Positions 1 to 14,914 of a stretch of DNA of 14,914 nt are shown here, in pieces. The DNA lies in contig DATDFH010000170.1 in NCBI GenBank assembly GCA_036522715.1, forward strand, positions 1 to 14,914. Reading direction: 5' to 3'. The stretch's first letter is position 1. Each line of letters begins with the position of its first letter. A program made the translations under genes and the position numbers. The notes under the pieces are model-generated. The model searched no databases and was not told the DNA's origin. It worked only from the letters and a program-made list of their open reading frames with translations. Source of the DNA: Verrucomicrobiia bacterium. GTDB lineage: Bacteria; Verrucomicrobiota; Verrucomicrobiia; Limisphaerales; JACQFS01.

Positions 1-734
1 AGCGACGGTTCGTAAAGGCCGCGGTCGATGTTCACCGTGTGTTCGCTACCGTGCTCGACATACTTCAGCGCCTTCCCGTCGAAGCGGCAGCGCACGACGG
101 TCGTGAAGTATTGCTTCGCTTTGATCTCCTTCGCGTAGATCGGCAAGAGAATGTCGCCGTTGTCGAGATCGACGCGCTGGGTGCTGCCTGCGCCGGCGCA
201 GGCGAACTTCGGTTCGTCCGGCATCTTCATCCGCGCCCACGAAGTCCACGTTAACGCCTTCGGGTCATACGCCGACCACACTGTGTCGCGCGGGCGGACG
301 GCCATGAGGACATCGTTCGAGTAGAAGACAGTGTGGCCGGTGGCGAGCAGCGTGCCGGAGCGCGCGTGCCACTTGGGCGTGAAGTCGCAGATGCCCTCCT
401 CGACCTTCGGCCCTCGCGGGTGGCGGCCGAGCGTGTTGGTGTGCGTGACCACCGGCGACCACGTGCGGCCGAGGTCGGGCGAGACCAGCGAGGCGATGGG
501 GTAAAACACATCGCTGCGCGCGACGTTCCATCGCTGCATCGTGAGCACGACAGTCGGCATCGGTCCGGGAATCGCCCCCGCGCGCGGATGGAACCAGCAC
601 AGTTTCCCGTCGAAGTCATCGTTCACGACGTCGAGCTGCACGCGGTAGGCAACAGGTTTGACAACTTTGTCTGCCGCGAAGGCGCTGGCGCACGCGAGAA
701 GAAGCAAGGCGGGGACAAGCGAGAAGGATTTCAT
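1..734 (-). CDS. Secreted BNR/Asp-box repeat protein (sialidase-like beta-propeller glycosyl hydrolase). Partial: the 3' end runs off the window start.
   Basis: Not in the ORF track because it has no stop inside the window. Hand translation of the reverse complement from ATG at 734 runs open to position 1. It begins MKSFSLVPALLLLACASAFAADKVV, a classic signal peptide. It contains a canonical Asp-box SPDLGRTW (S-x-D-x-G-x-T-W). A different frame from the track's 251..619 ORF. Confidence 0.7.
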   Translation of the reverse strand, partial: MKSFSLVPALLLLACASAFAADKVVKPVAYRVQLDVVNDDFDGKLCWFHPRAGAIPGPMPTVVLTMQRWNVARSDVFYPIASLVSPDLGRTWSPVVTHTNTLGRHPRGPKVEEGICDFTPKWHARSGTLLATGHTVFYSNDVLMAVRPRDTVWSAYDPKALTWTSWARMKMPDEPKFACAGAGSTQRVDLDNGDILLPIYAKEIKAKQYFTTVVRCRFDGKALKYVEHGSEHTVNIDRGLYEPS

Positions 735-773
735 GGGCGGCATGGAACTCAGACGCGGACCAACCGGCCGGCT

Positions 774-1442
774 TCAATACCACTTCGAGGTTACCGCCGG
801 CGGTTTGTGGTTCGCGAAATGATCGAGGACCTGCGCCGGCCGCTCGGCGACGTGGTAGAAATGCCGGTACTCCGCCTTGGTGAAGTTGTGCGCGTAAAGC
901 TGCTCGAAGAGTTCCAGCAGCGGATTGAAGAACCCGTCCACATTGAGGAACGCGATGGGTTTCTGGTGCGTCTGGAGCTGGCGCAACGTGAGCACTTCGA
1001 GGATTTCCTCCAGCGTGCCGAAGCCGCCGGGCAGCGCCACGAACGCATCGGCGCGCGCCTCCATGATTGCCTTTCGCTCGCGCAAGTCCTTCGTGACGAT
1101 CAACTCGTCGGCGGCTTCGTAGGCGATCTCCTTCTTGCGCATGAACTGCGGGATCACTCCGATCACGCGTCCGCCATGCTGGTGAACCGCGCGCGCCACG
1201 GCGCCCATCAAGCCGACATTGCCTCCGCCGTAAACCAGCACGATGCCGCGTTGCGCGAGCAATCTGCCAAACTCCTCCGCCGCGGCGAAATATTTTGGCG
1301 CGACCGCGTTGCTCGACGAACTGTAAACGCAGATGGCTTTGAGCACGGCGCAGTGTGCGAACAACGAAAACGGCGCGGCAAGTCGCAACTCGCCGCGCAG
1401 GTTGTTTGTTGGAGGGGGACGCCAGACGGACGAGTTCAGCAT
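774..1442 (-). CDS. LOG-family protein (cytokinin riboside 5'-monophosphate phosphoribohydrolase / TIGR00730 lysine-decarboxylase-like).
   Basis: Contains the LOG signature PGGFGTLEE and the Rossmann-like GGGNVGLMGAVA. The ATG at 1442 overlaps the upstream gene's TGA (ATGCTGA), implying translational coupling and supporting this start despite a ~35 aa N-terminal extension relative to typical LOG proteins. Confidence 0.85.
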   Translation of the reverse strand: MLNSSVWRPPPTNNLRGELRLAAPFSLFAHCAVLKAICVYSSSSNAVAPKYFAAAEEFGRLLAQRGIVLVYGGGNVGLMGAVARAVHQHGGRVIGVIPQFMRKKEIAYEAADELIVTKDLRERKAIMEARADAFVALPGGFGTLEEILEVLTLRQLQTHQKPIAFLNVDGFFNPLLELFEQLYAHNFTKAEYRHFYHVAERPAQVLDHFANHKPPAVTSKWY

Positions 1443-1888
1443 CCGTCCGGACGGACGTCCGCCGTCGAACCGTTGCGTTTCAACTTCGACAGCAATTCTT
1501 CCGGCTCGTCCGTGCCGAGGGCAAAACGCCTGCCGTTGCTCAGCGTGATGGCGACGGCGTCGAAGCCCGAGACGTTGTAGAGCCAGCCGAAGCGGCTCAG
1601 GTGGATGCCCCAGCCCTCAAGGAAGTTCGTGCGCACGACGCAAATCGAGGCGATGTCGGCCAACGCGATGCGCTTGCGGATCAGGCCCGGACCAAAACGC
1701 CAGTGCAGTTCGCTGCCAGTGATTTCGATGGTGAGCGAGTGAAAGAGCCACGCGGCCAGGACGAGAATCGGCACAGCAATGAGCAGTGGCTTGGTGGCAA
1801 ACCAGCCGAGCAGGGACATGCCGGCGGCCAGTCCGAGCATTGCGACGAGGATGAATGTGCCGCGTTGGGTGTGTTCGTAGGATTTCAT
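1436..1888 (-). CDS. Small membrane protein with two N-terminal TM helices followed by a bacterial PH-like (bPH_2/YdbS-like) domain.
   Basis: ATG start at 1888. There are two hydrophobic helices (FILVAMLGLAAGMSLLGWF and LLIAVPILVLAAWLF) followed by a ~90 aa soluble domain. This architecture is typical of DUF304/bPH_2 proteins. The call rests on the architecture only. Confidence 0.55.
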   Translation of the reverse strand: MKSYEHTQRGTFILVAMLGLAAGMSLLGWFATKPLLIAVPILVLAAWLFHSLTIEITGSELHWRFGPGLIRKRIALADIASICVVRTNFLEGWGIHLSRFGWLYNVSGFDAVAITLSNGRRFALGTDEPEELLSKLKRNGSTADVRPDGC

Positions 1889-1903
1889 GATTCAGGTTGG
1901 GTT

Positions 1904-1932
1904 GGGAGCGGCTGCACGAGGCAGCCGCTCCC
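1904..1932 (-). terminator. Perfect 12-bp GC-rich hairpin (GGGAGCGGCTGC-ACGAG-GCAGCCGCTCCC) between the SPFH gene stop and the PH-membrane gene start. Putative intrinsic terminator or attenuator.
   Basis: Read directly from the sequence. It is a 12-bp perfect inverted repeat with a 5-nt loop. A T-rich tract (GTTTGCACTTTGGTT) follows on the plus strand, but no U-tract follows in the minus-strand transcript direction. Confidence 0.4.
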
Positions 1933-1949
1933 GTTTGCACTTTGGTTCA

Positions 1950-3320
1950 TTACCGTTGTGCCGCCGTGGGCACTGGCATCTGGAACAGGATGTTCGGCCC
2001 GGCCGCGCCGCCGCCGCCAAGCCACCATTGCGGGAAGCGGCCGTCCCACTTCTCCACGCGCGCCTTCTCGACTTCGAGCGTCTTGAGCTGGAGCAGCAGC
2101 GGATTGTTCGCGGCCTCCTGCGAGGCTTTGTTCACCTCGCGGATCGCCTCGGCCTCGGCCTGCGCGGCGGTCTTGCGCGCGTCGGCCTGGCCTTGTGCTT
2201 CGCGGCGCGCCTTTTCGGCCGTGGCGTTGGCTTCGAGTTCGATGCGTTCGTTTTCCTTCCGCTGCGCGTCGAACTTCGCTTCGGACACGACCTTGAGTTG
2301 TTGCGCGATGAACGTCTCGTCGATCGATTTCTGGATCGCCGGGTTCTCGTAGGTCATGCCGCCGAACATCCCGACGGTCGTGACGGTCACGCCGCGCGTT
2401 GCGAAGAACGCGGTCACGTCCTGCTTCACCTCGTCCACGATTTCCTGTTTGCGCGAGCGCAACTGGTCGAGCGGATATTTCGCCGCGACTTCGGCCGCGA
2501 CCTGCTGGATGCGGCCGCGCACCTCGTTGTCCATCACGTTCGCGAGCGAGCCGCTCGGATACCAGTAGAGGAATTTCGCCGCGTCCTCCTCCGAGATGAA
2601 GGCGGTGCAGGTGAATCCCATGCTGAACCCGACGCTGTCGGCGCTCTCGATCCAGATCGCCTTGTCGCTCGCGCCGCCGCGGTTCAACTGGCCGACGGAC
2701 TGCGGGCCTTGCGGCGTGGTCCATTCGCGCGTGAGCGGCGAGCGGTTCACCTTCACCAGGCGCACAGTCGGAATCCACCGGCCCGTGTATTCGAGCCGGC
2801 CTTCCTGCGACCAGCGATGCAGAATCTGCACGCGCTTGGCCGCGACCTTGCGCTGGAGGAGATAATCCTCGGACTGGAACTTCGCCTGTTGGCCGGTGTC
2901 GCCTTCGAGCGGGATGAGGAAGCCGGTCTCCGAAGTGTCGATCTCGACGAACTCCGGCTTGTCATACGGCTTGATGCAGCCCGTGAGCAACAACGCGGGC
3001 AACAGCGCGAGCACGGCGGTCTTTGCCGCGTTCCGCGCCTGACTGCGCCGCTGCCACTGCGCGGCGATCCAACTTGCGCCGCGTTTCAACCACGGCGCGA
3101 AGCACACCCACGCCGCGAGCAACGTGAGTGCGCCCGCCGCGAGATGCGCCGCGTCCTTGAGCGACTCGAATGTGCGCAACTGCGCCGCAGCGGCGTTTCC
3201 GCCGTTGAGTTGTTGCACGGCCAGCGCGGAGGCAATGCCAGGCTGGCGCGCGTTGAGCCACACGGTTTCCGCCGTCCACACGGCGCCGACGATCAATCCA
3301 AACACAATGATGCGTTTCAT
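1950..3320 (-). CDS. SPFH/band-7 (stomatin/prohibitin-like) membrane protein with a C-terminal coiled-coil.
   Basis: The track ORF extends to 3374, but that start is a TTG. The ATG at 3320 (MKRIIVFGLIVGAVW...) gives an N-terminal TM helix typical of SPFH proteins. The central part shows SPFH-like conservation. The C-terminus has an Ala/Glu/Lys/Arg-rich coiled-coil (AKFDAQRKENERIELEANATAEKARREAQGQADARK...). Confidence 0.75.
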   Translation of the reverse strand: MKRIIVFGLIVGAVWTAETVWLNARQPGIASALAVQQLNGGNAAAAQLRTFESLKDAAHLAAGALTLLAAWVCFAPWLKRGASWIAAQWQRRSQARNAAKTAVLALLPALLLTGCIKPYDKPEFVEIDTSETGFLIPLEGDTGQQAKFQSEDYLLQRKVAAKRVQILHRWSQEGRLEYTGRWIPTVRLVKVNRSPLTREWTTPQGPQSVGQLNRGGASDKAIWIESADSVGFSMGFTCTAFISEEDAAKFLYWYPSGSLANVMDNEVRGRIQQVAAEVAAKYPLDQLRSRKQEIVDEVKQDVTAFFATRGVTVTTVGMFGGMTYENPAIQKSIDETFIAQQLKVVSEAKFDAQRKENERIELEANATAEKARREAQGQADARKTAAQAEAEAIREVNKASQEAANNPLLLQLKTLEVEKARVEKWDGRFPQWWLGGGGAAGPNILFQMPVPTAAQR

Positions 3321-3698
3321 AACCAACACCCACGATGTGCGCGCGCCCGCGCGCCGCCGCTGACGCGAGGTCAACTTCGGCCACGACGAGGCAACGGCGC
3401 GACGGAGCGCACGCGTTGTTGTGACGGGGTGATCAGATGGTGTCCCGACATCGGGACCCTAGAGGATCGCCCTTCCAATTGCCTGCGAGGTTAGCTGACG
3501 GGCTTGGTCCTGGAAGTGACCTTGGCGATGGTTGCCCACCGCCGTTCGCCCCGTCCGGAAACTCATTCCGGAATCTGGATCCCCCGCGCCGGCTTGTAGG
3601 AAGGCAAACCGGCTTCGGCTGCTACTTCAGACGGGATAGCGAATCGCATGAAATGCCGGCGTTGTCAAATGGGCGGTGGAAACACCAGCAAACAAGGG

Positions 3699-5869: not shown

Positions 5870-8062
5870 ATGAAAACCTACCACTTCGTCAACAACCTCT
5901 GGAAGGACGCCGAGTTCGCCAAGCTCTCCAGCGTGGACCGCCTCGTGTATCGCTCGAACAAACTCGGCGCCGACCAGCGCATCACCAACACCGGCGGCGG
6001 AAACACTTCCTCGAAGCTCATGGAGAAGGATCCGCTCACCGGCGATCCGGTTGAGGTGCTGTGGGTGAAAGGCTCCGGCGGCGACTTGCGCACGAGCACG
6101 CGTGAGAATTTTTCTTCGCTCTATCAGTCGCGGCTCATCGGCCTCCAAAAGATTTACGCCGCGCGCAAAGACAAGGGCCTTAAGTCGCAGGCCGAGGACG
6201 ACATGGTCGCGGCCTACAATCACACCACGTTCAACCTCAACCCGCGCGCCTCGTCCATCGACACGCCGTTGCACAGCTTCATCGCGGCGAAGCAGGTGGA
6301 CCACATGCATCCCAACGCGATCATTTCCATTGCCGCCTCCGCGCGCTGCGTCGAGCTGACCAAGGAAATCTTCGGCGGCGAAATGGAATACGTGCCGTGG
6401 ATGCGTCCCGGTTTCGAGCTGGGCCTGGCGATGCAGGACATCTGCGCCAAGAACCCGAAGGCCACGGGCATCATGATGGGCCAGCACGGCTTCATCTCGT
6501 GGGCCGATGACGACAAGGAATGCTATCTACGCACGCTCGACTACATCGAGAAGGCGTCGGCTTACATCGAGAAGCAGTATCAGGCGAAGGGCGGCGACAA
6601 GGCGGCGTTCGGCGGCGCGAAGTTCAAGTCGCTCTTGCAGGAGAAACGCAACGAGGTCTTCGCCGCCATTCTTCCGTGGCTGCGCGGCCAGGTTTCGCAG
6701 CAGAAGCGTTTCATCGGCACAGTGCAGGACGATGAGAAGATTCTCCGCTTCGTGAACTCGAAGGATGTGCCGCGCCTCGCAGAGTTGGGCACGAGTTGTC
6801 CCGATCATTTTCTCCGCACGAAGATCAAGCCGCTCTACGTGGATTGGAACCCGCAGTCCGAGGACATCGCCGCGCTCAAATCGAAACTCGGCGTGGGGCT
6901 GGAAGCGTATCGCAAGGACTACGCGGCGTATTACAAGAAGTGCAGGCACGCCAACTCGCCCGCGATGCGCGACCCGAATCCGACGGTCATCCTGATCCCC
7001 GGCTGCGGCATGATCGCGTGGGGCAAGGACAAGAGCGAGTCGCGCGTCACCGCCGAGTTCTATAACTGCGCCGTCGAGGTCATGCGCGGCGCGGAGGCCA
7101 TCGACAAGTACATCGCACTGCCGCAGCAGGAGGCGTTCGACATCGAGTATTGGCTGCTCGAAGAGGCGAAGCTCAAGCGCATGCCCGCCGAGAAGGAACT
7201 TGCGCGGCAGATCGTCATCGTCGTCGGCGCCGGCAGCGGCATCGGTAAGGAAGTGGCGCACCGGTTGGTGAAGGATGGCGCGCACATCGTCTGCGTCGAC
7301 CTCAAGCTCGACGCCGCACAGGCCACCGCGAAGGAGATCACCGACAAATACGGCGCCGGCATCGGCGTGGCGGGCAGCGGCATTTCCAATTGCGGCGTCG
7401 CCATCGGCCTCGCGTGCGATATCACCAAGCGCGACAGCGTGCGCGGAATGCTCGACCAGGTGGCGCTCGCGTACGGCGGCTTCGATTCCATCGTCGTGAC
7501 TGCCGGCATCTTCGTCGCACCGGACACGACCGGACGCATTCCCGACGACAAGTGGTCGCTGACTTTCGCCATCAACGTGATGGGTTCCTACCTCGTGGCC
7601 GACGAGGCGAAGAAGAACTGGCTCGAACAAGGATTGCCCGGCAGCCTCGTGCTGACCACCAGCGCCAACGCCGTCGTAGCGAAGAAAGGTTCCGTCGCCT
7701 ACGACACCTCGAAGGCTGCGGCGAATCATCTCGTCGGCGAACTCGCCGTGGAACTCGCGCCCCTCATCCGCGTCAACGGCGTCGCACCGGCGACCGTGGT
7801 GCAAGGCTCGGCGATGTTCCCGCGCGATCGCGTCGTCGCCAGTCTAGCCAAATACGGCATTGCCTACAAAGACAGTGAATCCAGCGACGCGCTGACCGAG
7901 CGGCTCGCCAGGTTTTACGCGGACCGCACGCTGACGAAGAATCCCATCACGCCCGCCGACCAGGCTGAAGGTTTCTTCCTGCTGGTTTCAAACCGCCTCG
8001 CCAAGACGACCGGCCACATCATCCCAGTGGATGGGGGATTGAGCGACGCGTTCCTGCGGTGA
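5870..8062 (+). CDS. rhaEW: Bifunctional L-rhamnulose-1-phosphate aldolase / short-chain dehydrogenase (lactaldehyde dehydrogenase), RhaEW/YuxG-type.
   Basis: 730 aa. The N-terminal ~440 aa has a class II aldolase/adducin-like domain. The C-terminal ~250 aa has an SDR domain with glycine-rich NAD(P) motif VVGAGSGIGKEVA and catalytic Y-x3-K (YDTSKAAANH). Length and domain order match TIGR02632-type fusion enzymes. Confidence 0.85.
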   Translation: MKTYHFVNNLWKDAEFAKLSSVDRLVYRSNKLGADQRITNTGGGNTSSKLMEKDPLTGDPVEVLWVKGSGGDLRTSTRENFSSLYQSRLIGLQKIYAARKDKGLKSQAEDDMVAAYNHTTFNLNPRASSIDTPLHSFIAAKQVDHMHPNAIISIAASARCVELTKEIFGGEMEYVPWMRPGFELGLAMQDICAKNPKATGIMMGQHGFISWADDDKECYLRTLDYIEKASAYIEKQYQAKGGDKAAFGGAKFKSLLQEKRNEVFAAILPWLRGQVSQQKRFIGTVQDDEKILRFVNSKDVPRLAELGTSCPDHFLRTKIKPLYVDWNPQSEDIAALKSKLGVGLEAYRKDYAAYYKKCRHANSPAMRDPNPTVILIPGCGMIAWGKDKSESRVTAEFYNCAVEVMRGAEAIDKYIALPQQEAFDIEYWLLEEAKLKRMPAEKELARQIVIVVGAGSGIGKEVAHRLVKDGAHIVCVDLKLDAAQATAKEITDKYGAGIGVAGSGISNCGVAIGLACDITKRDSVRGMLDQVALAYGGFDSIVVTAGIFVAPDTTGRIPDDKWSLTFAINVMGSYLVADEAKKNWLEQGLPGSLVLTTSANAVVAKKGSVAYDTSKAAANHLVGELAVELAPLIRVNGVAPATVVQGSAMFPRDRVVASLAKYGIAYKDSESSDALTERLARFYADRTLTKNPITPADQAEGFFLLVSNRLAKTTGHIIPVDGGLSDAFLR

Positions 8063-8092
8063 TCGAAGGGCCGACTGGCCGGTGAAACTCCG

Positions 8093-9379
8093 TCAGCGCA
8101 ACGTACGATCGAGACGCGCTTGGTGATAAGCGTGCCGTTGTGCCGGGCTCATCGAGTCAAAATCCGGCGAACCATCCGCGCGTTTGGGCCAATCACCCGA
8201 AGCAGATGACGTAAGAAGGCTCCCGCTTTTTCTCTCAACTCCCGCCGGCTTGGTGTTTGCGAGGGGATTGTTCCTTACCTCGACCGTCGTGCGCCGCGAC
8301 GAACTGCTGTCGTAGCTCATTACCTGATCGGTGAGCTTAAGGTCGTCATCCAACGAACGGTGCGGCTTGATGCCCTTGCTCTGAAGCACGCCGTGGTAGG
8401 CGCGCACGGCTTCCTCCGGCGTCACCTTGCCGTCAGTGATGAGCCGGAGCATCTCGATGAACGCGAGCTGGTGTTCGGCGTTGTTGATCTTGCGGCCGTA
8501 GAGCGCCACACGCGCGCCGTATTTCTGCGCGTCGTGAATGAGCTTGAAGGCGTCGTAGGTCGTGCCGGCGCTGCCGCCGAGAATTCCGACGACGAGGTTC
8601 GGATCGTATTGCGCAAGTTCCTCCATCGCCTTCGGTCCATGATAGACGATTTTCAGAAAGATGGGCCGGCCCGATTCCGGCACGCCGGCGAGCGTGCGGA
8701 GGATGTTGTCGTTGATGAACTCGCCGAGTTTTTCCGGCGCGATGCCGCTGTCCACGTTTGGATCGAAGACTTCGAGGAAGTGACGGAACTGCTTCCGCTC
8801 CGCCTCCTCGCGAAATTCCTTGTACCACAACAGCGCCTCGCGGTCCTGTTCGAGGTCGTTGACGTAGGTGATCGAGTAGAGGCCGAGGTTCGCGCCGGGA
8901 AATTCTCCACTTCCGTCGCGCTCACACTCGACCTCACCGCATTGGATGTGATCAATGCTCGCGCTGCGAAACGGCTGACTCGGCTCGCGCGTGTAACAGC
9001 CGTGGCGCACGGCCCACACGTCGGTGGTGTCATTCGCGCGTGCGGCGGGCGTGACGTGCGAGTCCTTGAACAAGCCTTCCTTGATCGTGAGCTGCTCGTT
9101 CACGTAAGCGCTCATCAGCATGATGTCGATGAGTCCCTGGTGCGTGACCTCGCGGATGATGTCGAGGAACTCCGGCAGGTTGCGGTATCCGAATTCATCG
9201 CGCGTCCAGACTTCGGGGGAAAATTGCGCCGGTCGAGCGCCGCCTCGCGCGAGATAGTTTCGCGGTCCCGGTGAGCGCGCGCCGAAAGCCATGTCCGCAT
9301 CCTTCGCGTCGGCGATGATGAACGCGCGCGACGAGCGGTTGGCTTTGATCTCAGCGAGCTTGGCGTCGAGGGATTTCAT
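8093..9379 (-). CDS. Class I aldolase-type TIM-barrel protein (DhnA/FbaB/LacD-like family) with a ~75 aa low-complexity C-terminal tail.
   Basis: ATG at 9379. There is a C-terminal family-like motif GARVALYGRKI (compare FbaB ...LILGRKAF). Residues KIVYHGPKA contain a lysine at a position plausible for the Schiff-base Lys. The Ser/Arg/Pro-rich tail SYDSSSSRRTTVEVRNNPLANTKPAGVERKSGSLL... looks disordered. The family assignment is from memory of motifs only. Confidence 0.5.
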   Translation of the reverse strand: MKSLDAKLAEIKANRSSRAFIIADAKDADMAFGARSPGPRNYLARGGARPAQFSPEVWTRDEFGYRNLPEFLDIIREVTHQGLIDIMLMSAYVNEQLTIKEGLFKDSHVTPAARANDTTDVWAVRHGCYTREPSQPFRSASIDHIQCGEVECERDGSGEFPGANLGLYSITYVNDLEQDREALLWYKEFREEAERKQFRHFLEVFDPNVDSGIAPEKLGEFINDNILRTLAGVPESGRPIFLKIVYHGPKAMEELAQYDPNLVVGILGGSAGTTYDAFKLIHDAQKYGARVALYGRKINNAEHQLAFIEMLRLITDGKVTPEEAVRAYHGVLQSKGIKPHRSLDDDLKLTDQVMSYDSSSSRRTTVEVRNNPLANTKPAGVERKSGSLLTSSASGDWPKRADGSPDFDSMSPAQRHAYHQARLDRTLR

Positions 9380-9389
9380 CGGATACGTG

Positions 9390-10310
9390 TCACGAATTCT
9401 TCGTGATCAGCCAGTCCGCTAGGCCCGCGCTCACGACAAGTTTTGCGAGTTCATTGGGGCCGATCACTTTAACGGAATTGGACGATTTCGGGTGCGACAT
9501 CTTGCCGTCGAAGGAATGGGCAACGAAAAAAAGTCGGTTGTGAGTTTTCGTCCGCTTCAACTCGTCGATGTAGTCTCGGACTTCATTGCTGTTCGAGCGC
9601 GATTTAATCTGTACAACCGCCCGCTCACCAGTAACGGGGGCGACGAGGTCCAAATCCCAACTCTTCTCGGTTTTCCCGCGCACACCTACGCGACGCCAAC
9701 CAGCTTGCACAAACACAAGGTCAACGAGAATTTCGAAGTCACCCCAGGTCAGATTTTGGATGAGAGGGACGAGGCAATTCTCCAGAGCGTACTTCGCAGT
9801 GTTGGCTCTTCTCACTTCGTCGGAACGCTTGCCGTTAATCCTGTCGATTGCGTATTGCCGCTCCTTGACTCGACATATAGTCCCGCGAAAGCCTCTCATC
9901 TGTGTGAGTTTTCCGCTGAGGGAGTCTAAGCTGAGACGCTCTCCCTTAATGTCAGTGTCGTGCCACTTTCCGATCACTCTTCTGATCTTCGTACCGTCGC
10001 GAAGCCGTCTTACCTTTTCCTCCGCAAAGCACCACCACATCCGAGACGCGTAAAATGTCAACCAAGCAGTCTTCGTGTTACGGGTATAGAAAAGCCTGAT
10101 TTGGTTGGTAAACTCTGTGGCCTTCCCTTTCGTTTTTGACCTTAGGTAGAATTTCCGAACCCTACTCCACTTTTCCGTGAGACAGTCATCGTGGTCTGAT
10201 TCTCTGAATCCGAGACGGATTGTTTGGGCGTTTTCAATGCAGTCCTGCTCCCACTGTCCTCCCGAACCCAATTTGATGTAGTAGATTTCGCTCGGCGAAA
10301 TTGCTTTCAC
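9390..10310 (-). CDS. Two-domain protein: an unknown ~170 aa N-terminal domain fused to a C-terminal Mrr-like PD-(D/E)xK restriction-endonuclease domain (Mrr_cat-like). Likely horizontally acquired.
   Basis: The C-terminal region FEILVDLVFVQAGWRRVGVRGKTEKSWDLDLVAPVTGERAVVQIKS matches the Mrr catalytic-core pattern (D...D-x-D...Q-x-K). GC is markedly lower (~50-52%) than flanking genes (~63%), with A/T-ending codons. The start is a GTG preceded by the SD-like AAGGGA, which native neighbours lack. Confidence 0.6.
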   Translation of the reverse strand: MKAISPSEIYYIKLGSGGQWEQDCIENAQTIRLGFRESDHDDCLTEKWSRVRKFYLRSKTKGKATEFTNQIRLFYTRNTKTAWLTFYASRMWWCFAEEKVRRLRDGTKIRRVIGKWHDTDIKGERLSLDSLSGKLTQMRGFRGTICRVKERQYAIDRINGKRSDEVRRANTAKYALENCLVPLIQNLTWGDFEILVDLVFVQAGWRRVGVRGKTEKSWDLDLVAPVTGERAVVQIKSRSNSNEVRDYIDELKRTKTHNRLFFVAHSFDGKMSHPKSSNSVKVIGPNELAKLVVSAGLADWLITKNS

Positions 10311-10335
10311 GTTTATCCCTTCGCTCTTTCGCGTC

Positions 10336-11379
10336 TCATTTCATCTGCGCTAGAATCTGGTCTGTGATCGCCTGCACGGCCTTCTCCGCTTCGGAATCGT
10401 AGCCGACTGTGGCTTCCTGTTTCGCGGGCACGGCGCAGGTGACTCCGGGGCGCCAGTCGTCGTTGTCGCACAGCTCGCACTCCTTGAGGCCGTAACGCGG
10501 ATCGGGAATGCCGAGGGTCTGCTTGATCTTGAGCAGGTCCTGAAGCTGGCCGGTGGTCATTGTCTTCGGCGGGACGCCCAGTTGGTTGGTCACGAGCACC
10601 GTGTGGCAATAGGCCTCGATGATCTCCATCTTGAAGTAGGCGTCCTCGACGTTGTTGTGGCTCCACGAGACGACGCCGTGATTGGCCATGAGGATGGTGT
10701 TGTGTTTGTCCACCAGTTCGGCGACGAGCTTGCCCATCTCCGGCGTGCCCGGCGTGCGATACGGCGCAATGGCCACCGACGCGAACACTTCAAACTCCGG
10801 AATCATGCACGACGGCGGCACCAGTCCGGCGATCGCGAAGGCCGTGCTGTACGGCGGATGGCAATGGCACGTCGCGACTGCCTTGGGCTGCTGCTTCATG
10901 ATCTGGAGGTGCATCAGGATTTCGCTCGTGCGCTTCTTCACGCCGGCGAGTTGGTTGCCCTCAAAGTCCACGAGGCACATGTCCTCGGGTTTCATGAAGC
11001 CCTTGCTCACCAGCGTGGGCGTGCACAGCGCGATGTCCTCGCCGACGCGGATGGCGATGTTGCCGCCGTTGCCGTCCACGTAGGCGCGCTGCCACAAGCG
11101 GCGACCGATTTCACAGAGTTGTTCCTTCAACGCGTGGCAGTAGGGCGAGTTGAAGAGTGCTTCGAGTTCGGCCTTCGGCGATTTGGAATTGAGCTGCTTC
11201 GCCGGCGCGCTTGTGGAACCACTGACGGCGGGCGCACCGGAGGCACCGCCGCGGCGTTGTAGGTCGCGGAGCATGTCCCTGGCGGACGGCGTGTAAACGG
11301 CATCGCCTGGCAGGCTTTTCAAATCGCCGCCGCGGGCGAGCACGGCCTCGATGTCTTTGGCGCTGATTACGTTCGTCAT
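10336..11379 (-). CDS. Class II aldolase (L-fuculose-/L-rhamnulose-1-phosphate aldolase family), BMC-associated, with a ~75 aa N-terminal extension and a ~45 aa C-terminal extension.
   Basis: The core carries the Zn-ligand motifs H-x-H (ATCHCHPPY) and a third His (MANHGVV), as in FucA/RhaD. The N-terminal extension has a short helix (SAKDIEAVLARGG) plus a Gly/Ser/Ala/Pro-rich linker. The C-terminus ends in an amphipathic helix (EAEKAVQAITDQILAQMK) resembling a BMC encapsulation peptide. The ATG at 11379 overlaps the upstream BMC-P stop (ATGA). Confidence 0.85.
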   Translation of the reverse strand: MTNVISAKDIEAVLARGGDLKSLPGDAVYTPSARDMLRDLQRRGGASGAPAVSGSTSAPAKQLNSKSPKAELEALFNSPYCHALKEQLCEIGRRLWQRAYVDGNGGNIAIRVGEDIALCTPTLVSKGFMKPEDMCLVDFEGNQLAGVKKRTSEILMHLQIMKQQPKAVATCHCHPPYSTAFAIAGLVPPSCMIPEFEVFASVAIAPYRTPGTPEMGKLVAELVDKHNTILMANHGVVSWSHNNVEDAYFKMEIIEAYCHTVLVTNQLGVPPKTMTTGQLQDLLKIKQTLGIPDPRYGLKECELCDNDDWRPGVTCAVPAKQEATVGYDSEAEKAVQAITDQILAQMK

Positions 11380-11681
11380 GGGTTGAAGGGGTTGTAAAAA
11401 ATATCGTCCACCAGCGCGGCATTGATGGCATCCACTGGCGTGGGTGCGTCGAACGGCTGCGCGGCCTCGCGGCCCTCGATGTAGCCGATGGTCTGGCCAA
11501 CGCCGCCGCCGAGAGCGTCATACACGACCAGGCTCGGGTCTTTGCTCAGGCCCGTCGGCGTCTGGGTGCCGCGCTGAAAATGTTCACGCGTGAATGGCGA
11601 GACGATGAGCCAACGCGCGCCGACCAGCTCGGGCGCCGCCTTGCTCAACGTGACGCGACCGATGACGGAGCCGAGCTTCAC
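11376..11681 (-). CDS. BMC vertex (pentamer) protein, EutN/PduN/CcmL family (BMC-P), paralog 3.
   Basis: MKLGSVIGRVTLSK...LVVYDALGGGVGQTIGY is the typical PF03319 pattern. The GTG start overlaps the preceding BMC-P stop (GTGA). Confidence 0.8.
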   Translation of the reverse strand: MKLGSVIGRVTLSKAAPELVGARWLIVSPFTREHFQRGTQTPTGLSKDPSLVVYDALGGGVGQTIGYIEGREAAQPFDAPTPVDAINAALVDDIFYNPFNP

Positions 11682-11956
11682 ACGGCCACCCCCGGTTCGA
11701 TTTCGTCCACGACACCGACGACCAGCCAGCGCACGGGACTTTTTTGATCACCGACGGCATTGCGCGCGGCAGAACCATCAGAGGAGATGACGACGCGCTG
11801 ATGCATGCCGGCACCGTGCGAATCGATCGCGATTTGCGGCGCGCCCTCGGCATCGCCGGCGTGATTGATCGGCTGACAGATCACAAGCCGCCAGCCCTCG
11901 AAGCTCGGATGCTTGCGAGTCGCCACGACATTGCCTTCAACACGCGCGAGGAGCAC
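11678..11956 (-). CDS. BMC vertex (pentamer) protein, EutN/PduN family (BMC-P), paralog 2.
   Basis: MLLARVEGNVVATRKHPSFEGWRLVICQP... is PduN-like. The GTG start lies 3 nt after the aldehyde dehydrogenase stop. Confidence 0.75.
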   Translation of the reverse strand: MLLARVEGNVVATRKHPSFEGWRLVICQPINHAGDAEGAPQIAIDSHGAGMHQRVVISSDGSAARNAVGDQKSPVRWLVVGVVDEIEPGVAV

Positions 11957-11959
11957 GGC

Positions 11960-13456
11960 TCAATAGATCCTCAGGTTGTCCACCATCACGCAGCGACGGA
12001 CGCGCGTAAAGGTTTTCGGATTCGTCACGCCTTCGCCGGTCGGCGTGGCGATGGAGTAGCTCAAGTAACCCTCGCCGCCGAGGCCGAGACCGGCCATGCA
12101 CGGGCCGTTCTTGATGAACAACGTCGTGTCGAGCGCGCGGCCCATCGCGGTCATCGCCTCGACGTCGTGCGAGTGGATGATGCTCGTGTGCTTGTAGCCG
12201 TGCTCGGCTTCGAGCGAATGCGCGACGCCTTCCTCCAGGCTCTTCACGCGCGTGATCGGCAGGAAGGGCATCATCTGCTCCTCGACGACGAACGGATGGT
12301 TCGCGTCCGTCTCGGCGAAGAGCAACTGCGTGCCGGCCGGAATGTTAACGCCGGCCGCCTTCGCGAGAACACCGGGGTCCTTGCCGATGAAATCCTTGTT
12401 CACCGAGGCGTGCGGACAGCCGCCGCCTTCGCCGGGCTTGAAGGTGAACGCCGCCTTCGTTAGCGCGTCGAGTTGGGCATTGCTCAACTTCACCGCGCCG
12501 TTCTGCTCCATCTGCGACATCAATTTGTCCGCGATGTTTTCGAGCGCAAAGACTTCCTTCTCGCCGATGCAGAGCAGGTTGTTGTCGTAGCTGGCGCCTT
12601 GGATGATGGCCTTGGCCGCACGCTTCATGCAGGCGGTGTCATCGACGAATACAGGCGGGTTGCCGGGGCCGGCGCAGATGGCGCGTTTGCCGGTCTGCAT
12701 CGCGGCCTTCACCACGCCGGGACCGCCGGTGACGAGCAACAGCCGCACGGCGTCGTGCTTACACATGGCCGCGAAGCTTTCCATCGAGGGCTTCTCGATG
12801 GTGGTCGCGATGTTCTCGATGCCGGTCTCGCGGTAGATGGCTTCGTTGTAGGCGCGCACCGCGGTGGCGGCACAACGCGCGGCGGCCGGATGCGGATTGA
12901 ACACGGCGGCATTCCCAGCGGCGCAGATGTTCACGATGTTGCCGCTCAACGTCGGGATGGAATGCGTGCTCGGCGTGACCGCGCCGACGACACCGAACGG
13001 CGTGTATTCCTCGAGCGTGATGCCGTGGTCGCCGCTGCGGCCATCGGGGCGAAGCCACTCCACGCCGGGGACGAGTTTGATGATCTTGAGCTTCTCGATC
13101 TTGTGGTCGAGCCGGCCGATCTTCGTCTCGTCGAGTTCGAGTTTGCCCCACGCCTCGGCGTTGGAGTCCGCCATCGACTTGATGATCTCGACGATCTTCA
13201 CGCGCGCGGCGACGCCGGCCTTCTGAAGTTGCAGGAAAGATTCCTGCGCGGCGGCGCAGGCTTCGTTGGCGTCCTGGAACACGCCGAACTTCCCGCGCAA
13301 CGCGGGCTTGCCGTTCGTTGAATTCTTGCCGCCGCAGCCGCAATCCTGCCTCGGTGCGGGAGCGGGAGCGGATTTCGCCGCTGGCGCTGCGCCGCCCAAA
13401 CGGCCCAACACTTCGGTGACAACGTCTCGAATCAAAGTTTCGTTCACGGCACTCAT
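11960..13456 (-). CDS. CoA-acylating aldehyde dehydrogenase (PduP/EutE-like) with an N-terminal BMC encapsulation peptide.
   Basis: N-terminal MSAVNETLIRDVVTEVLGRLGG is an amphipathic helix, followed by the Ala/Pro-rich linker AAPAAKSAPAPAPRQ. This is the classic encapsulation-peptide-plus-linker arrangement (compare PduP MNTSELETLIRTIL...). Catalytic Cys context NLLCIGEKEVF. The ~500 aa length fits the family. Confidence 0.9.
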   Translation of the reverse strand: MSAVNETLIRDVVTEVLGRLGGAAPAAKSAPAPAPRQDCGCGGKNSTNGKPALRGKFGVFQDANEACAAAQESFLQLQKAGVAARVKIVEIIKSMADSNAEAWGKLELDETKIGRLDHKIEKLKIIKLVPGVEWLRPDGRSGDHGITLEEYTPFGVVGAVTPSTHSIPTLSGNIVNICAAGNAAVFNPHPAAARCAATAVRAYNEAIYRETGIENIATTIEKPSMESFAAMCKHDAVRLLLVTGGPGVVKAAMQTGKRAICAGPGNPPVFVDDTACMKRAAKAIIQGASYDNNLLCIGEKEVFALENIADKLMSQMEQNGAVKLSNAQLDALTKAAFTFKPGEGGGCPHASVNKDFIGKDPGVLAKAAGVNIPAGTQLLFAETDANHPFVVEEQMMPFLPITRVKSLEEGVAHSLEAEHGYKHTSIIHSHDVEAMTAMGRALDTTLFIKNGPCMAGLGLGGEGYLSYSIATPTGEGVTNPKTFTRVRRCVMVDNLRIY

Positions 13457-13473: not shown

Positions 13474-13788
13474 CTACTGGGCTTTCGCGCTGTAAATTTG
13501 TTTCCCGAGCACATCCACGGTGTCCACGATGCCGATGATGACGGCGTCCACCGGGGCGTCTTTCATGCCGCCGGCCAGGCGGGCGCTGCTGCCCTGACAG
13601 AACATCACCAGTTCGTTGATGCCCGCGCCGACGGTGTCCACCGCCACGATGGTGTTCGAGCCGGGGCGGAATTTCGTGGGATCCTTTTCATCCACCAATT
13701 GCGGTCGGAGCAGGAGCAGCTTGCGGCCGTTCATGCTGGCCTCTTTCTTGGTCGAGACCACCGAGCCTTCTACGCGAGCGAGGAACAT
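13474..13788 (-). CDS. BMC vertex (pentamer) protein, EutN/PduN family (BMC-P), paralog 1.
   Basis: MFLARVEGSVVSTKKEASMNGRKLLLLRP... closely resembles the PduN N-terminus. ATG start. Confidence 0.85.
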   Translation of the reverse strand: MFLARVEGSVVSTKKEASMNGRKLLLLRPQLVDEKDPTKFRPGSNTIVAVDTVGAGINELVMFCQGSSARLAGGMKDAPVDAVIIGIVDTVDVLGKQIYSAKAQ

Positions 13789-13851: not shown

Positions 13852-14142
13852 TTACGTTGTCCGCTTCTTCGGCAGGACCGCGTCCACGTCGTTGTGCGGG
13901 CGGGCGATGACGTGCACGCTGACGACTTCGCCCTTGATGGCCTTGATGGCTTGGGCGCCGGCGTCGGTGGCGGCCTTCACGGCGGCGACGTCGCCGACGA
14001 CGACCGCGGTGACGAGGGCGTTGCCGACCTGCATCATCGGGCCGGCAAGCTCGACGTTCGCGGCCTTGAGCATCGCGTCGGTGCCCTCGACGAGGGCGAC
14101 GAGGCCGCGGGTTTCAATCATTCCAATTGCTGGTTGTGCCAT
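13852..14142 (-). CDS. BMC hexamer shell protein (PduA/EutM-like, PF00936, BMC-H).
   Basis: [28 protein letters not shown]...[19 protein letters not shown]...[16 protein letters not shown] is near-colinear with PduA motifs. Confidence 0.9.
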
Positions 14143-14186: not shown

Positions 14187-14914
14187 TCAATTTCGACTTT
14201 CGAGCAGGCGCTTCGCTTCGCGTGCGACGACGAGTTCCTCGTTCGTCGGAATCACCAGCACTTTCACGCGTGAGTTGGTGGCGCTGATGACCGCTTCGGT
14301 GGCGCAGGTGGAATTGTTTTTCTCCACGTCGAGCACGATGCCGAGCTGGTCGAGGTTCGCGCAAATCGCGGCGCGCAGTTCCGCGCGGTTCTCGCCGATG
14401 CCGGCAGTGAAGACGATGGCGTCGGCGCCGTTCATCTGGAAGAAGTAGCCACCAATCCAGCGACGCGCTTCGCTGACGAACACATCGATCGCGAGCTTGG
14501 CCTTGGCGTTGCCTTTCGCAGCGGCATCCTGGATGTCGCGAATGTCGTTGGAGAGTCCGCCGCTGAGACCTTTGAGGCCGGCTTCCTTCGAAAGCTGGCG
14601 TTGCGCTTCCTCGACGGCGAGGCCGAGAGTTTTGGCGGCGTAGGGCAACGCTTCTGCATCGAGATCGCCGACGCGGTTGTTGTGCGGCAGGCCGGATTGC
14701 GGGCTCATGCCTAGGCTGTTGCCTATGGCGACGCCGTTCAGGATCCCCGTGATGCTGGAACTGCCACCCAAGTGACACGAGATGACTCGGAGCGGCGCGC
14801 CAGTTACTGGAGACTTGCCACCGCTCACGTAAAGACTCTGCGCCCGCGATGAGACGTCCGTCCGTCCGAACATTTCCGCGCTGCGTTCGGCGATGAACTT
14901 GTGGCTCGCGCCGT
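14187..14914 (-). CDS. ackA: Acetate (acyl) kinase, C-terminal ~240 aa. The 5' end lies beyond the window end.
   Basis: VFTAGIGENRAELRAAICANLDQLGIVLDVEKN and VLVIPTNEELVVAREAKRLL match the conserved AckA C-terminus. The ORF is open to the window edge; the ATG at 14873 is internal. Confidence 0.85.
   Translation of the reverse strand, partial: GASHKFIAERSAEMFGRTDVSSRAQSLYVSGGKSPVTGAPLRVISCHLGGSSSITGILNGVAIGNSLGMSPQSGLPHNNRVGDLDAEALPYAAKTLGLAVEEAQRQLSKEAGLKGLSGGLSNDIRDIQDAAAKGNAKAKLAIDVFVSEARRWIGGYFFQMNGADAIVFTAGIGENRAELRAAICANLDQLGIVLDVEKNNSTCATEAVISATNSRVKVLVIPTNEELVVAREAKRLLESRN

Follow-up and report, generated by a model that had tools for sequence, protein, structure and literature searches.

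A candidate compact type IV restriction endonuclease housed in a verrucomicrobial microcompartment operon

A 306-aa open reading frame (ORF) set among the genes of a microcompartment operon in a Verrucomicrobiia bacterium probably encodes a modification-dependent (type IV) restriction endonuclease, a compact enzyme whose single chain would both recognise modified DNA and cut it. The DNA analysed, hereafter the window, comprises 14,914 nt of contig DATDFH010000170.1. In the mechanism we propose, a PUA-like barrel in the N-terminal half of the protein would flip out a modified base and hold it in an aromatic pocket, a long helix would connect this barrel to an Mrr-type PD-(D/E)xK nuclease (E193, D197, D219, Q234-x-K236), and the nuclease would then cut the DNA close to the recognised base. 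Host DNA that is unmodified, or modified in a different way, would be no substrate, so that such an enzyme could dispense with a methyltransferase. The nuclease most likely entered the operon in one verrucomicrobial lineage, straight after the aldolase gene. Since then purifying selection has most likely maintained it in some lineages, with clean losses in many. The original prediction, made from the nucleotide sequence of the window, was thus essentially right in its reading of the gene, and the feature is older than it looks.

Gene, operon and composition

The gene set of the window is that of the fucose/rhamnose microcompartment locus of Planctomycetes and Verrucomicrobia (PVM), and the ORF and the neighbouring operon genes are all on the same strand (Table 1). 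The class II aldolase next to the ORF is the signature enzyme of the PVM microcompartment, and the core alcohol dehydrogenase of such loci is predicted to be an Ldh-type dehydrogenase (PMC4207490). A tblastn search for a lactate/malate-dehydrogenase-type gene found no Ldh-like sequence in the window.

Table 1 Features of the microcompartment operon and of the candidate endonuclease in the window.
Feature	Position	Strand	Details
Conserved 428-aa operon gene	8093-9379	minus	Downstream neighbour; no Pfam family
Spacer, ORF to ATG of 428-aa gene	9380..9389	minus	10 nt
Whole ORF, candidate single-chain modification-dependent restriction endonuclease	9390..10310	minus	306 aa; GTG start, TGA stop
Predicted Mrr_cat PD-(D/E)xK nuclease domain (C-terminal)	9393..9755	minus	aa 186-306
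Catalytic core codons	9603..9656	minus	D219 (9654-9656), Q234 (9609-9611), K236 (9603-9605); invariant in 53 homologues
Upstream acidic residues	E193 9732-9734; D197 9720-9722	minus	Invariant in 53 homologues
Long linker helix, reader to nuclease	9756..9821	minus	~aa 164-185; helix 163-184 in the full-length model (model numbering)
PUA-like (EVE/YTH-like) beta-barrel, predicted modified-base reader (N-terminal)	9822..10307	minus	aa 2-163
Spacer, aldolase stop to ORF	10311..10335	minus	25 nt; Shine-Dalgarno-like AAGGGA at 10316-10321
Class II aldolase	10336-11379	minus	Upstream neighbour in 5/5 carriers; Pfam Aldolase_II 6e-43
EutN/BMC-P, third of three	11376-11681	minus	Pfam
EutN/BMC-P, second of three	11678-11956	minus	Pfam
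Aldehyde dehydrogenase	11960-13456	minus	Pfam Aldedh
EutN/BMC-P, first of three	13474-13788	minus	Pfam
BMC-H	13852-14142	minus	Pfam BMC
Acetate kinase fragment	14187-14873	minus	Pfam Acetate_kinase

The gene had been described as lying on the operon strand, separated by 25 bp from the aldolase stop and by 10 bp from the start of the next gene, with GC falling from ~63% to ~50% over its length. The exact coordinates agree with this placement, and the fall in GC is borne out. GC and GC3 of the ORF are 51.2% and 61.6%, as against 61–67% and 70–87% in the neighbouring genes, the deviation amounts to z = −8.4 relative to fourteen other windows of 921 bp (mean 63.0%, sd 1.4), and the sliding-window GC minimum of the whole window falls inside the ORF. 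Codon usage likewise marks the gene as compositionally foreign, with a CAI-like index of adaptation to the window’s genes of 0.42 for the ORF and 0.61–0.78 for the others.

The GTG start is supported by homologue alignments, which begin at residue 2; on a near-identical contig (L002) the JGI gene call is 216 aa long and begins at an internal ATG. AAGGGA precedes the GTG by 5 nt, a spacing conserved in one related operon (L001), while the motif is not conserved in another (L086). The assertion that no other gene nearby has a Shine-Dalgarno-like site is nearly true, since only one comparable purine run was found, a GAGGA at about −16 before the second EutN gene.

The downstream spacer leaves no space for a terminator. 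Scanning with a sigma-70-like model, which may not fit verrucomicrobial promoters, detected no promoter-like sites between the genes, and intergenic terminator-like sites were as numerous as expected from shuffled sequence. Together with spacers of 7–30 bp upstream of the gene in all operons that carry it, the missing promoter- and terminator-like sites lead us to infer that transcription from the operon promoter probably extends through the nuclease gene. The gene had also been noted to lack flanking integrases, transposases or repeats. This holds at the scale of the window, where the scanned ORFs include no integrase or transposase and a search for flanking repeats or att-like sites returned only short two-copy matches at chance level.

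Nuclease and reader domains

Mrr_cat (PF04471) is the sole Pfam family to match the ORF protein, and hence there is no match to Mrr_N. It aligns with aa 184–290 at 24.8 bits (gathering score 21), and the protein contains the motif D219-L-D221 ... Q234-I-K236, in agreement with the D-x-D...Q-x-K core first recognised by eye. All 53 aligned relatives match Mrr_cat above the Pfam threshold (best E 4e-10), and within the nuclease half of their alignment E193, D197, D219, Q234, K236 and H265 (ORF numbering) are invariant. An AlphaFold model of the whole protein (pLDDT 91) gives the C-terminal domain a restriction-endonuclease-like fold. Possession of an Mrr-type nuclease domain alone does not make an enzyme modification-dependent, as LlaGI illustrates (PMC3874153).

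The first ~165 residues match nothing in Pfam, NCBIfam or the sequences of the PDB. None of the 53 members has an N-terminal Pfam family, EVE, YTH and ASCH included, even at E ≤ 5; PDB sequence searches with the single protein and with the 53-member profile gave no useful match; and an hhalign comparison of the N-domain profile with unverified YTHDC1 and YTHDF2 sequences gave a null, uninformative result. Structure prediction, in turn, returned a PUA-like pseudo-barrel for aa 2–163 (pLDDT 95.8, pTM 0.90). The best structural match of this model is the EVE-HNH restriction enzyme VcaM4I (8.9), and further matches include the YTH domains of YTHDF1, MRB1, YTHDC2, CPSF30, YTHDC1 and Mmi1 (7.0–8.6), PH1033 (7.7), 2ar1 and 2gbs (entries titled hypothetical proteins; 6.6–6.7), the McrB N-domains of T. 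gammatolerans (bound to m5C DNA; 6.6) and S. marinus (6.5), an ASCH domain (5.9) and THYN1 bound to 5mC DNA (5.6). The first match without a PUA-like fold is an unrelated ribosomal protein (4.9). The modelled fold and its matches to VcaM4I, YTH and McrB N-domains are consistent with the PUA/EVE-like modified-base reader that had been put forward as speculation. The 53-relative alignment is conserved from end to end, and K13, L14, G15, G18, H40, W48, F74, Y75, W83, T85, F86, W93, W116, G133, G143, C146, Y153 and N159 are invariant in its N-terminal half. The eight aromatics among them (W48, F74, Y75, W83, F86, W93, W116 and Y153) would be compatible with a base pocket.

The resemblance to YTH domains could also point to an enzyme directed at RNA, in which the reader would recognise a methylated base in rRNA, tRNA or phage RNA and the PD-(D/E)xK domain would cut the RNA. 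RNA reading and cleavage have reportedly been proposed for YTH-containing CoCoNuT systems. We regard an RNA target as distinctly unlikely here, because the characterised Mrr-cat or Mrr-like relatives EcoKMrr, MspJI and LlaGI all act on DNA as restriction enzymes (PMC3874153), modified DNA is also what VcaM4I, the top structural match, and the McrB N-domains bind (PMC7897488), and no RNA-metabolism genes are found among the neighbours. DNA is accordingly retained as the presumed target of the candidate restriction enzyme.

History of the nuclease in the operon

Eighty orthologous loci were fetched from species representatives with the 428-aa gene as anchor. All of them belong to Verrucomicrobiota MAGs, several of which are mislabelled, and in 64 of them the aldolase and the 428-aa gene are both present. 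A nuclease homologue is absent from every one of these 64, which leads us to reject an ancestral member of the operon, and tblastn (E ≤ 5) detected no nuclease remnants in the carrier-free operons. The original prediction had named a native-GC homologue in orthologous loci as the observation that would speak against a foreign gene; none of the 64 loci has a homologue at all, and low GC is kept in all carriers.

The nuclease was found in five diverged metagenomic operons, in each case directly after the aldolase stop. The window and its 99%-identical twin L002, whose nuclease is 100% identical to the window protein, count as one of these; nuclease identity to the window protein is 74.5% in L001, 64.5% in L086, 61.5% in L097, where the next gene is an Ldh-type dehydrogenase, and 61.1% in L098. 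Between the window and L001 the nuclease shows dN 0.158, dS 1.37 and dN/dS 0.115, values like those of the flanking genes (dN 0.11–0.23, dS 1.0–1.5). Over the ten carrier pairs, moreover, nuclease identity tracks aldolase identity (r = 0.78) and the same two pairs are closest. Because the nuclease has co-diverged with its flanks in five carriers, we reject a recent insertion. The fresh parasitic insertion originally envisaged is in conflict with this shared position, the co-divergence and the purifying selection.

In the representatives nearest to each carrier the nuclease is missing; their aldolases are 85–90% identical, closer than those of any carrier to another. Sliding comparison of the flanks with L001 and with non-carriers revealed a faint excess of identity toward L001 over the ~70 C-terminal residues of the aldolase, whereas the opposite flank showed no such excess. 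The most economical explanation is a single old insertion, followed by vertical descent under purifying selection with many clean losses, or by a long-lived presence/absence polymorphism. The nuclease cassette could also have spread by homologous recombination.

Persistence at one site raises the question of whether the protein belongs to the microcompartment operon proper, natively or through domestication, and serves metabolism or regulation there. The shared strand and tight spacing would fit such a role, as would the common position in five diverged operons with a dN/dS of ~0.12 and the use of the slot that the Ldh-type dehydrogenase fills in canonical PVM loci (PMC4207490). We nonetheless consider this very improbable, given the absence from all 64 representative operons with both flanking genes, the foreign composition in every carrier, a nuclease fold whose active site is intact, and relatives of ≤55% identity that reside outside microcompartment loci, in unrelated surroundings across many phyla and also on plasmids. 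Least credible of all is the idea that the gene arrived by horizontal transfer and is now inactive and in decay. Decay might produce the low GC, the poorly adapted codons and the frequent losses among relatives, but the ORF is intact in five carriers, its catalytic and core residues are all invariant, and dN/dS is 0.115 at a dS above 1.

The foreign composition has outlasted this long residence. GC3 values of nuclease and adjacent aldolase in the five carriers are 0.62/0.83, 0.63/0.79, 0.47/0.76, 0.55/0.82 and 0.42/0.69, so that the nuclease lies 17–35 points lower in 5/5 carriers. Synonymous sites between carriers are saturated (pS 0.63–0.88), yet the low nuclease GC3 persists. This might be explained by selection that favours poor codons in a dangerous gene, or by re-introduction of the gene time and again. 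Three further suggestions go beyond the basic reading of a type IV enzyme. The N-domain may form a distinct, sequence-orphan clade of PUA-like readers whose target, for example 6mA in DNA or a hypermodified phage base, lies outside the specificities of known modification-dependent enzymes; the position behind the aldolase may couple nuclease expression to induction of the fucose/rhamnose microcompartment; and persistent poor codon usage may have been selected to hold a dangerous nuclease at a low level. That a new base specificity, microcompartment-tied expression and codon-limited nuclease level all apply together is a tentative reading that we think unlikely to hold as a whole.

The slot between the aldolase and the 428-aa gene is itself a hotspot for small genes. 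It is empty (≤150 bp) in 26 of the 64 representative loci, contains a native-GC Ldh-type dehydrogenase in 28 and holds other cargo in the remaining 10, and such cargo also stands beside the Ldh gene in L077 and L084. The inserted genes encode PIN/DUF3368 proteins, an IS200-like Y1 transposase, a PDDEXK_3 (GxxExxY) nuclease, a DUF1963 protein, beta-carbonic anhydrases, a GH116 glycosidase and a 23S_rRNA_IVP protein. This variety of cargo indicates that the nuclease is one of many tenants of a permissive junction. Palindromic repeats were observed in two of the empty spacers (L006 and L014).

Distribution and genomic contexts of the family

A search of 5.8 billion proteins recovered at least 676 full-length homologues of ~305 aa with 45–74% identity, from organisms as different as Salinivibrio, Flavobacterium and an archaeon. 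With the N-domain alone as query, phmmer against 1.84 billion representatives returned at least 775 clusters (50% identity), nearly all with the same architecture of ~300–325 aa. Longer variants (390–470 aa) were considered as carriers of extra effector domains and rejected; their additional N-terminal pieces (DUF6508, Ldh_2, AIG2) are unrelated and probably represent gene-call fusions. A literature search found no experiments on this family.

Relatives of ≤55% identity are solitary genes in unrelated places outside microcompartment loci, in many phyla and on plasmids. One lies on a Flavobacterium chromosome between OmpA and patatin genes, another among the transfer genes of a CTnDOT-like conjugative element close to an AcrVA2-like gene, a third in an island with an integrase, a reverse transcriptase, Fic and a type I/IIG methylase; others adjoin a ScoMcrA_N protein and an integrase, or Fic genes. 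MmeI-like, type I restriction-modification and toxin–antitoxin genes are further neighbours. Plasmid members, annotated as ‘hypothetical protein’ or ‘restriction endonuclease’, were found on 116 plasmids, 101 of them from Klebsiella and 74 conjugative. A member on a Sinorhizobium plasmid does attain the GC of its host. The family is absent from 50,697 phage genomes and occurs in two of 2.9 million viral contigs.

In ~12 unrelated contexts examined there is no conserved partner and no adjacent cognate methyltransferase, and the methyltransferases nearby are parts of complete type I or IIG systems. The single-protein module that had been proposed is matched by homologues that are solitary, without a methyltransferase and often in defence or mobile surroundings. 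A reader and a nuclease without a cognate methyltransferase is the organisation of a type IV enzyme, and these surroundings suggest a role in defence.

Solitary genes in mobile contexts, with Fic and toxin–antitoxin genes as neighbours, might also be expected of a modification-independent nuclease toxin, an abortive-infection gene or an addiction-type selfish gene, whose N-domain would recognise a particular sequence or structure of DNA or bind a small ligand. Such a gene could persist by hitch-hiking in a useful operon or through post-segregational killing. A patchy distribution with many losses would fit, lasting poor codon usage could keep a toxic protein low, and PUA-like domains are known in toxin–antitoxin systems too (PMC7641849). 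Against this, the ~12 contexts hold no conserved antitoxin or immunity partner, strong purifying selection extends across the whole reader domain with its many invariant aromatics, and the closest structural matches of the N-domain are modified-base readers of restriction enzymes. On balance we judge a toxin unlikely and prefer a modification-dependent restriction endonuclease.

Provided that the enzyme is active, its family would be a very common but uncharacterised group of compact nucleases dependent on modification, as its numbers of clusters and of Klebsiella plasmids attest. Standard profiles miss the reader domain, and an active family would therefore be a candidate tool for mapping epigenetic marks and would play a part in the traffic of plasmids and phages. 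Should a novel base specificity prove true, an enzyme of only 306 aa would be of practical use. The operon also indicates that defence-type genes can last long inside a metabolic operon, at a cargo-collecting junction rather than in a classical defence island. Nothing here overturns current understanding, and the location of the gene is odd but explicable.

Comparison with known systems

The suggestion of an undescribed single-gene defence system is not sustained. Type IV activity had already been predicted for EVE-PD(D/E)xK fusions (Bell, Wolf, Koonin 2020; PMC7641849), and they and other PUA–nuclease fusions are established or predicted members of this type (PMC7641849, PMC6765204, PMC7897488, PMC3874153). 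The ORF is a candidate new member of this already predicted kind of enzyme and not a new system, distinguished from the predicted EVE-PD(D/E)xK enzymes by an N-domain that escapes the Pfam EVE and YTH models.

There is also a weak resemblance to the candidate PDC-S02. Its PADLOC HMM matches the ORF at 19.2 bits (E 1.7e-4) over profile positions 27–278 of 299, and weakly matches 26 of the 53 relatives (best 3e-9). PDC-S02 is likewise a single-gene candidate; the matches span nearly the full length, with marginal scores. PDC-S02 is itself an unvalidated defence candidate, one representative of which gave no protection against T4, T5 and T7 in E. coli B (bioRxiv 10.1101/2024.09.26.614923).

EcoKMrr, the classical type IV Mrr enzyme, shares with the ORF the Mrr_cat family, the D...QxK variant of the active site and the solitary gene without a methyltransferase. 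Its presumed DNA-binding domain is Mrr-N (PMC3874153), whereas a PUA-like barrel is predicted for the ORF. In YTH/EVE-McrB fusions a GTPase and a separate McrC nuclease are needed, in contrast to the reader and nuclease joined in one chain here. VcaM4I and TspA15I combine an EVE domain with an HNH catalytic domain (PMC7897488), where the ORF has an Mrr-type PD-(D/E)xK domain, and sequence identity between the readers is 6%. The MspJI family has an identical layout, with a PUA-like (SRA-like) reader and an Mrr-cat nuclease (PMC3874153). MspJI and AspBHI, modification-dependent endonucleases of type IIM/IV, are larger (~390–450 aa, against 306 aa), their SRA-like readers differ from that of the ORF, which is closest to EVE/YTH, and sequence similarity is not detectable. 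All the same, MspJI/AspBHI, VcaM4I and the predicted EVE-PD(D/E)xK class follow the same reader-plus-nuclease logic as that proposed for the ORF.

A variable slot directly downstream of the aldolase

The junction between the class II aldolase and the 428-aa gene, the same site at which the predicted Mrr-type nuclease lies, is a variable slot in the PVM microcompartment operon. Across 64 representative loci from the set L006-L085 the junction is empty in 26, occupied by a lactate/malate-dehydrogenase-type (Ldh-type) gene in 28, and filled by other cargo in the remaining 10, with such cargo also found beside the Ldh-type gene in L077 and L084. The cargo includes PIN/DUF3368, IS200-like Y1 transposase, PDDEXK_3 nuclease, DUF1963, beta-carbonic anhydrase, GH116, and 23S_rRNA_IVP genes, and several of these have a GC content below that of their flanks. 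The empty spacers of L006 and L014 are 72–140 bp long. They consist of short repeated palindromes (CACGGATT.../...AATCCGTG; AAATCCGAA.../...TTCGGATTT) that look like REP-like elements.

The nuclease occupies the position taken by the Ldh-type gene in 28 other loci. In PVM loci the Ldh-type enzyme is predicted to be the core alcohol dehydrogenase (PMC4207490), and no gene of this type was detected anywhere in the window or in carrier locus L001. Both genes are present in carrier L097, in the order aldolase, nuclease, Ldh.

Composition of the nuclease gene and provenance of contigs

In each of the five carriers, GC3 of the nuclease is 17–35 points below that of its neighbouring aldolase. The gene has not ameliorated in these carriers, although their synonymous divergence from one another is saturated. 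Contig L002, from a different sample, matches the window without a single difference for 5.4 kb and then, at its end, departs from it at 52 positions in 312 bp; this segment is either a mosaic created by recombination or the product of a chimeric assembly. Among the GTDB MAG records bearing this verrucomicrobial operon, several have Klebsiella pneumoniae, Bifidobacterium, Proteobacteria, Haliangiales, or Akkermansia muciniphila as their title, and are evidently mislabelled submissions.

Coordinates of features in the window, orthologous loci, and nuclease relatives
Feature	Sequence	Position	Strand	Remark
Conserved 428-aa operon gene	window	8093-9379	(-)
Nuclease in carrier	window	9390-10310
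Nuclease in carrier	L001	1892-2812
Nuclease in carrier	L086	600-1514
Nuclease in carrier	L097	287-1213
Nuclease in carrier	L098	171-1094
428-aa gene with early stop	L086	1526-2184
Junction example	L013	5495-5998
Junction example	L015	2525-2971
Junction example	L022	5576-5962
Junction example	L023	680-1615
Junction example	L033	5262-5930
Junction example	L047	2361-5426
Junction example	L077	5499-5906
Identity with L002	window	6469-11920
Mismatch segment with L002	window	6157-6468
c-di-AMP (ydaO-type) riboswitch	window	3465-3630	(-)	Rfam 64 bits; gathering score 38
SPFH/Band 7 domain gene	window	1950-3374	(-)	474 aa
LOG/lysine-decarboxylase-like gene	window	774-1442	(-)
Long ORF, probably spurious	window	333-1580	(+)	GC1 > GC3
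Long ORF, probably spurious	window	1887-3494	(+)	GC1 > GC3
Fic neighbours or DUF2779/nuclease/DUF4357 trio	L087	6201-7364
Fic neighbours or trio	L091	199-1140
Fic neighbours or trio	L095	4249-5928
Fic neighbours or trio	L004
Fic neighbours or trio	L093
Plasmid family member, example	NZ_CP061701.1	6276-7193
Operon-bearing records, evidently mislabelled	L007, L008, L011, L016, L018, L019, L023, L031, L035

Other genes and elements of the window

The conserved 428-aa gene matched no Pfam family and resembles class I aldolase and ADH-synthase models only faintly. It has at least 581 relatives in verrucomicrobial genomes, which adjoin microcompartment genes in the loci examined. Its copy in carrier L086 has a normal start (MKSLDAKLAEIK...) and a stop after 19 codons, beyond which similarity is lost; either the gene has become a pseudogene or been rearranged, or the contig is misassembled here.

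Elsewhere in the window, a c-di-AMP riboswitch lies directly upstream of the SPFH/Band 7 domain gene. Two long plus-strand ORFs without Pfam matches overlap minus-strand genes that do have them (the LOG/lysine-decarboxylase-like and SPFH genes), and are probably spurious antisense ORFs.

Relatives of the nuclease in other contexts

A nuclease-family member with 38% identity is carried by large plasmids of Klebsiella, 101 in all and most of them conjugative (hits H8-H20). On pC39-334kb, where it is annotated as a 'hypothetical protein', it sits between the RepB replication gene and a Ter/VWA/PP2C cluster. Fic-family genes occur near members of the family in three unrelated contexts, and in two loci the nuclease stands within a DUF2779/nuclease/DUF4357 trio adjoining type IIG enzymes.
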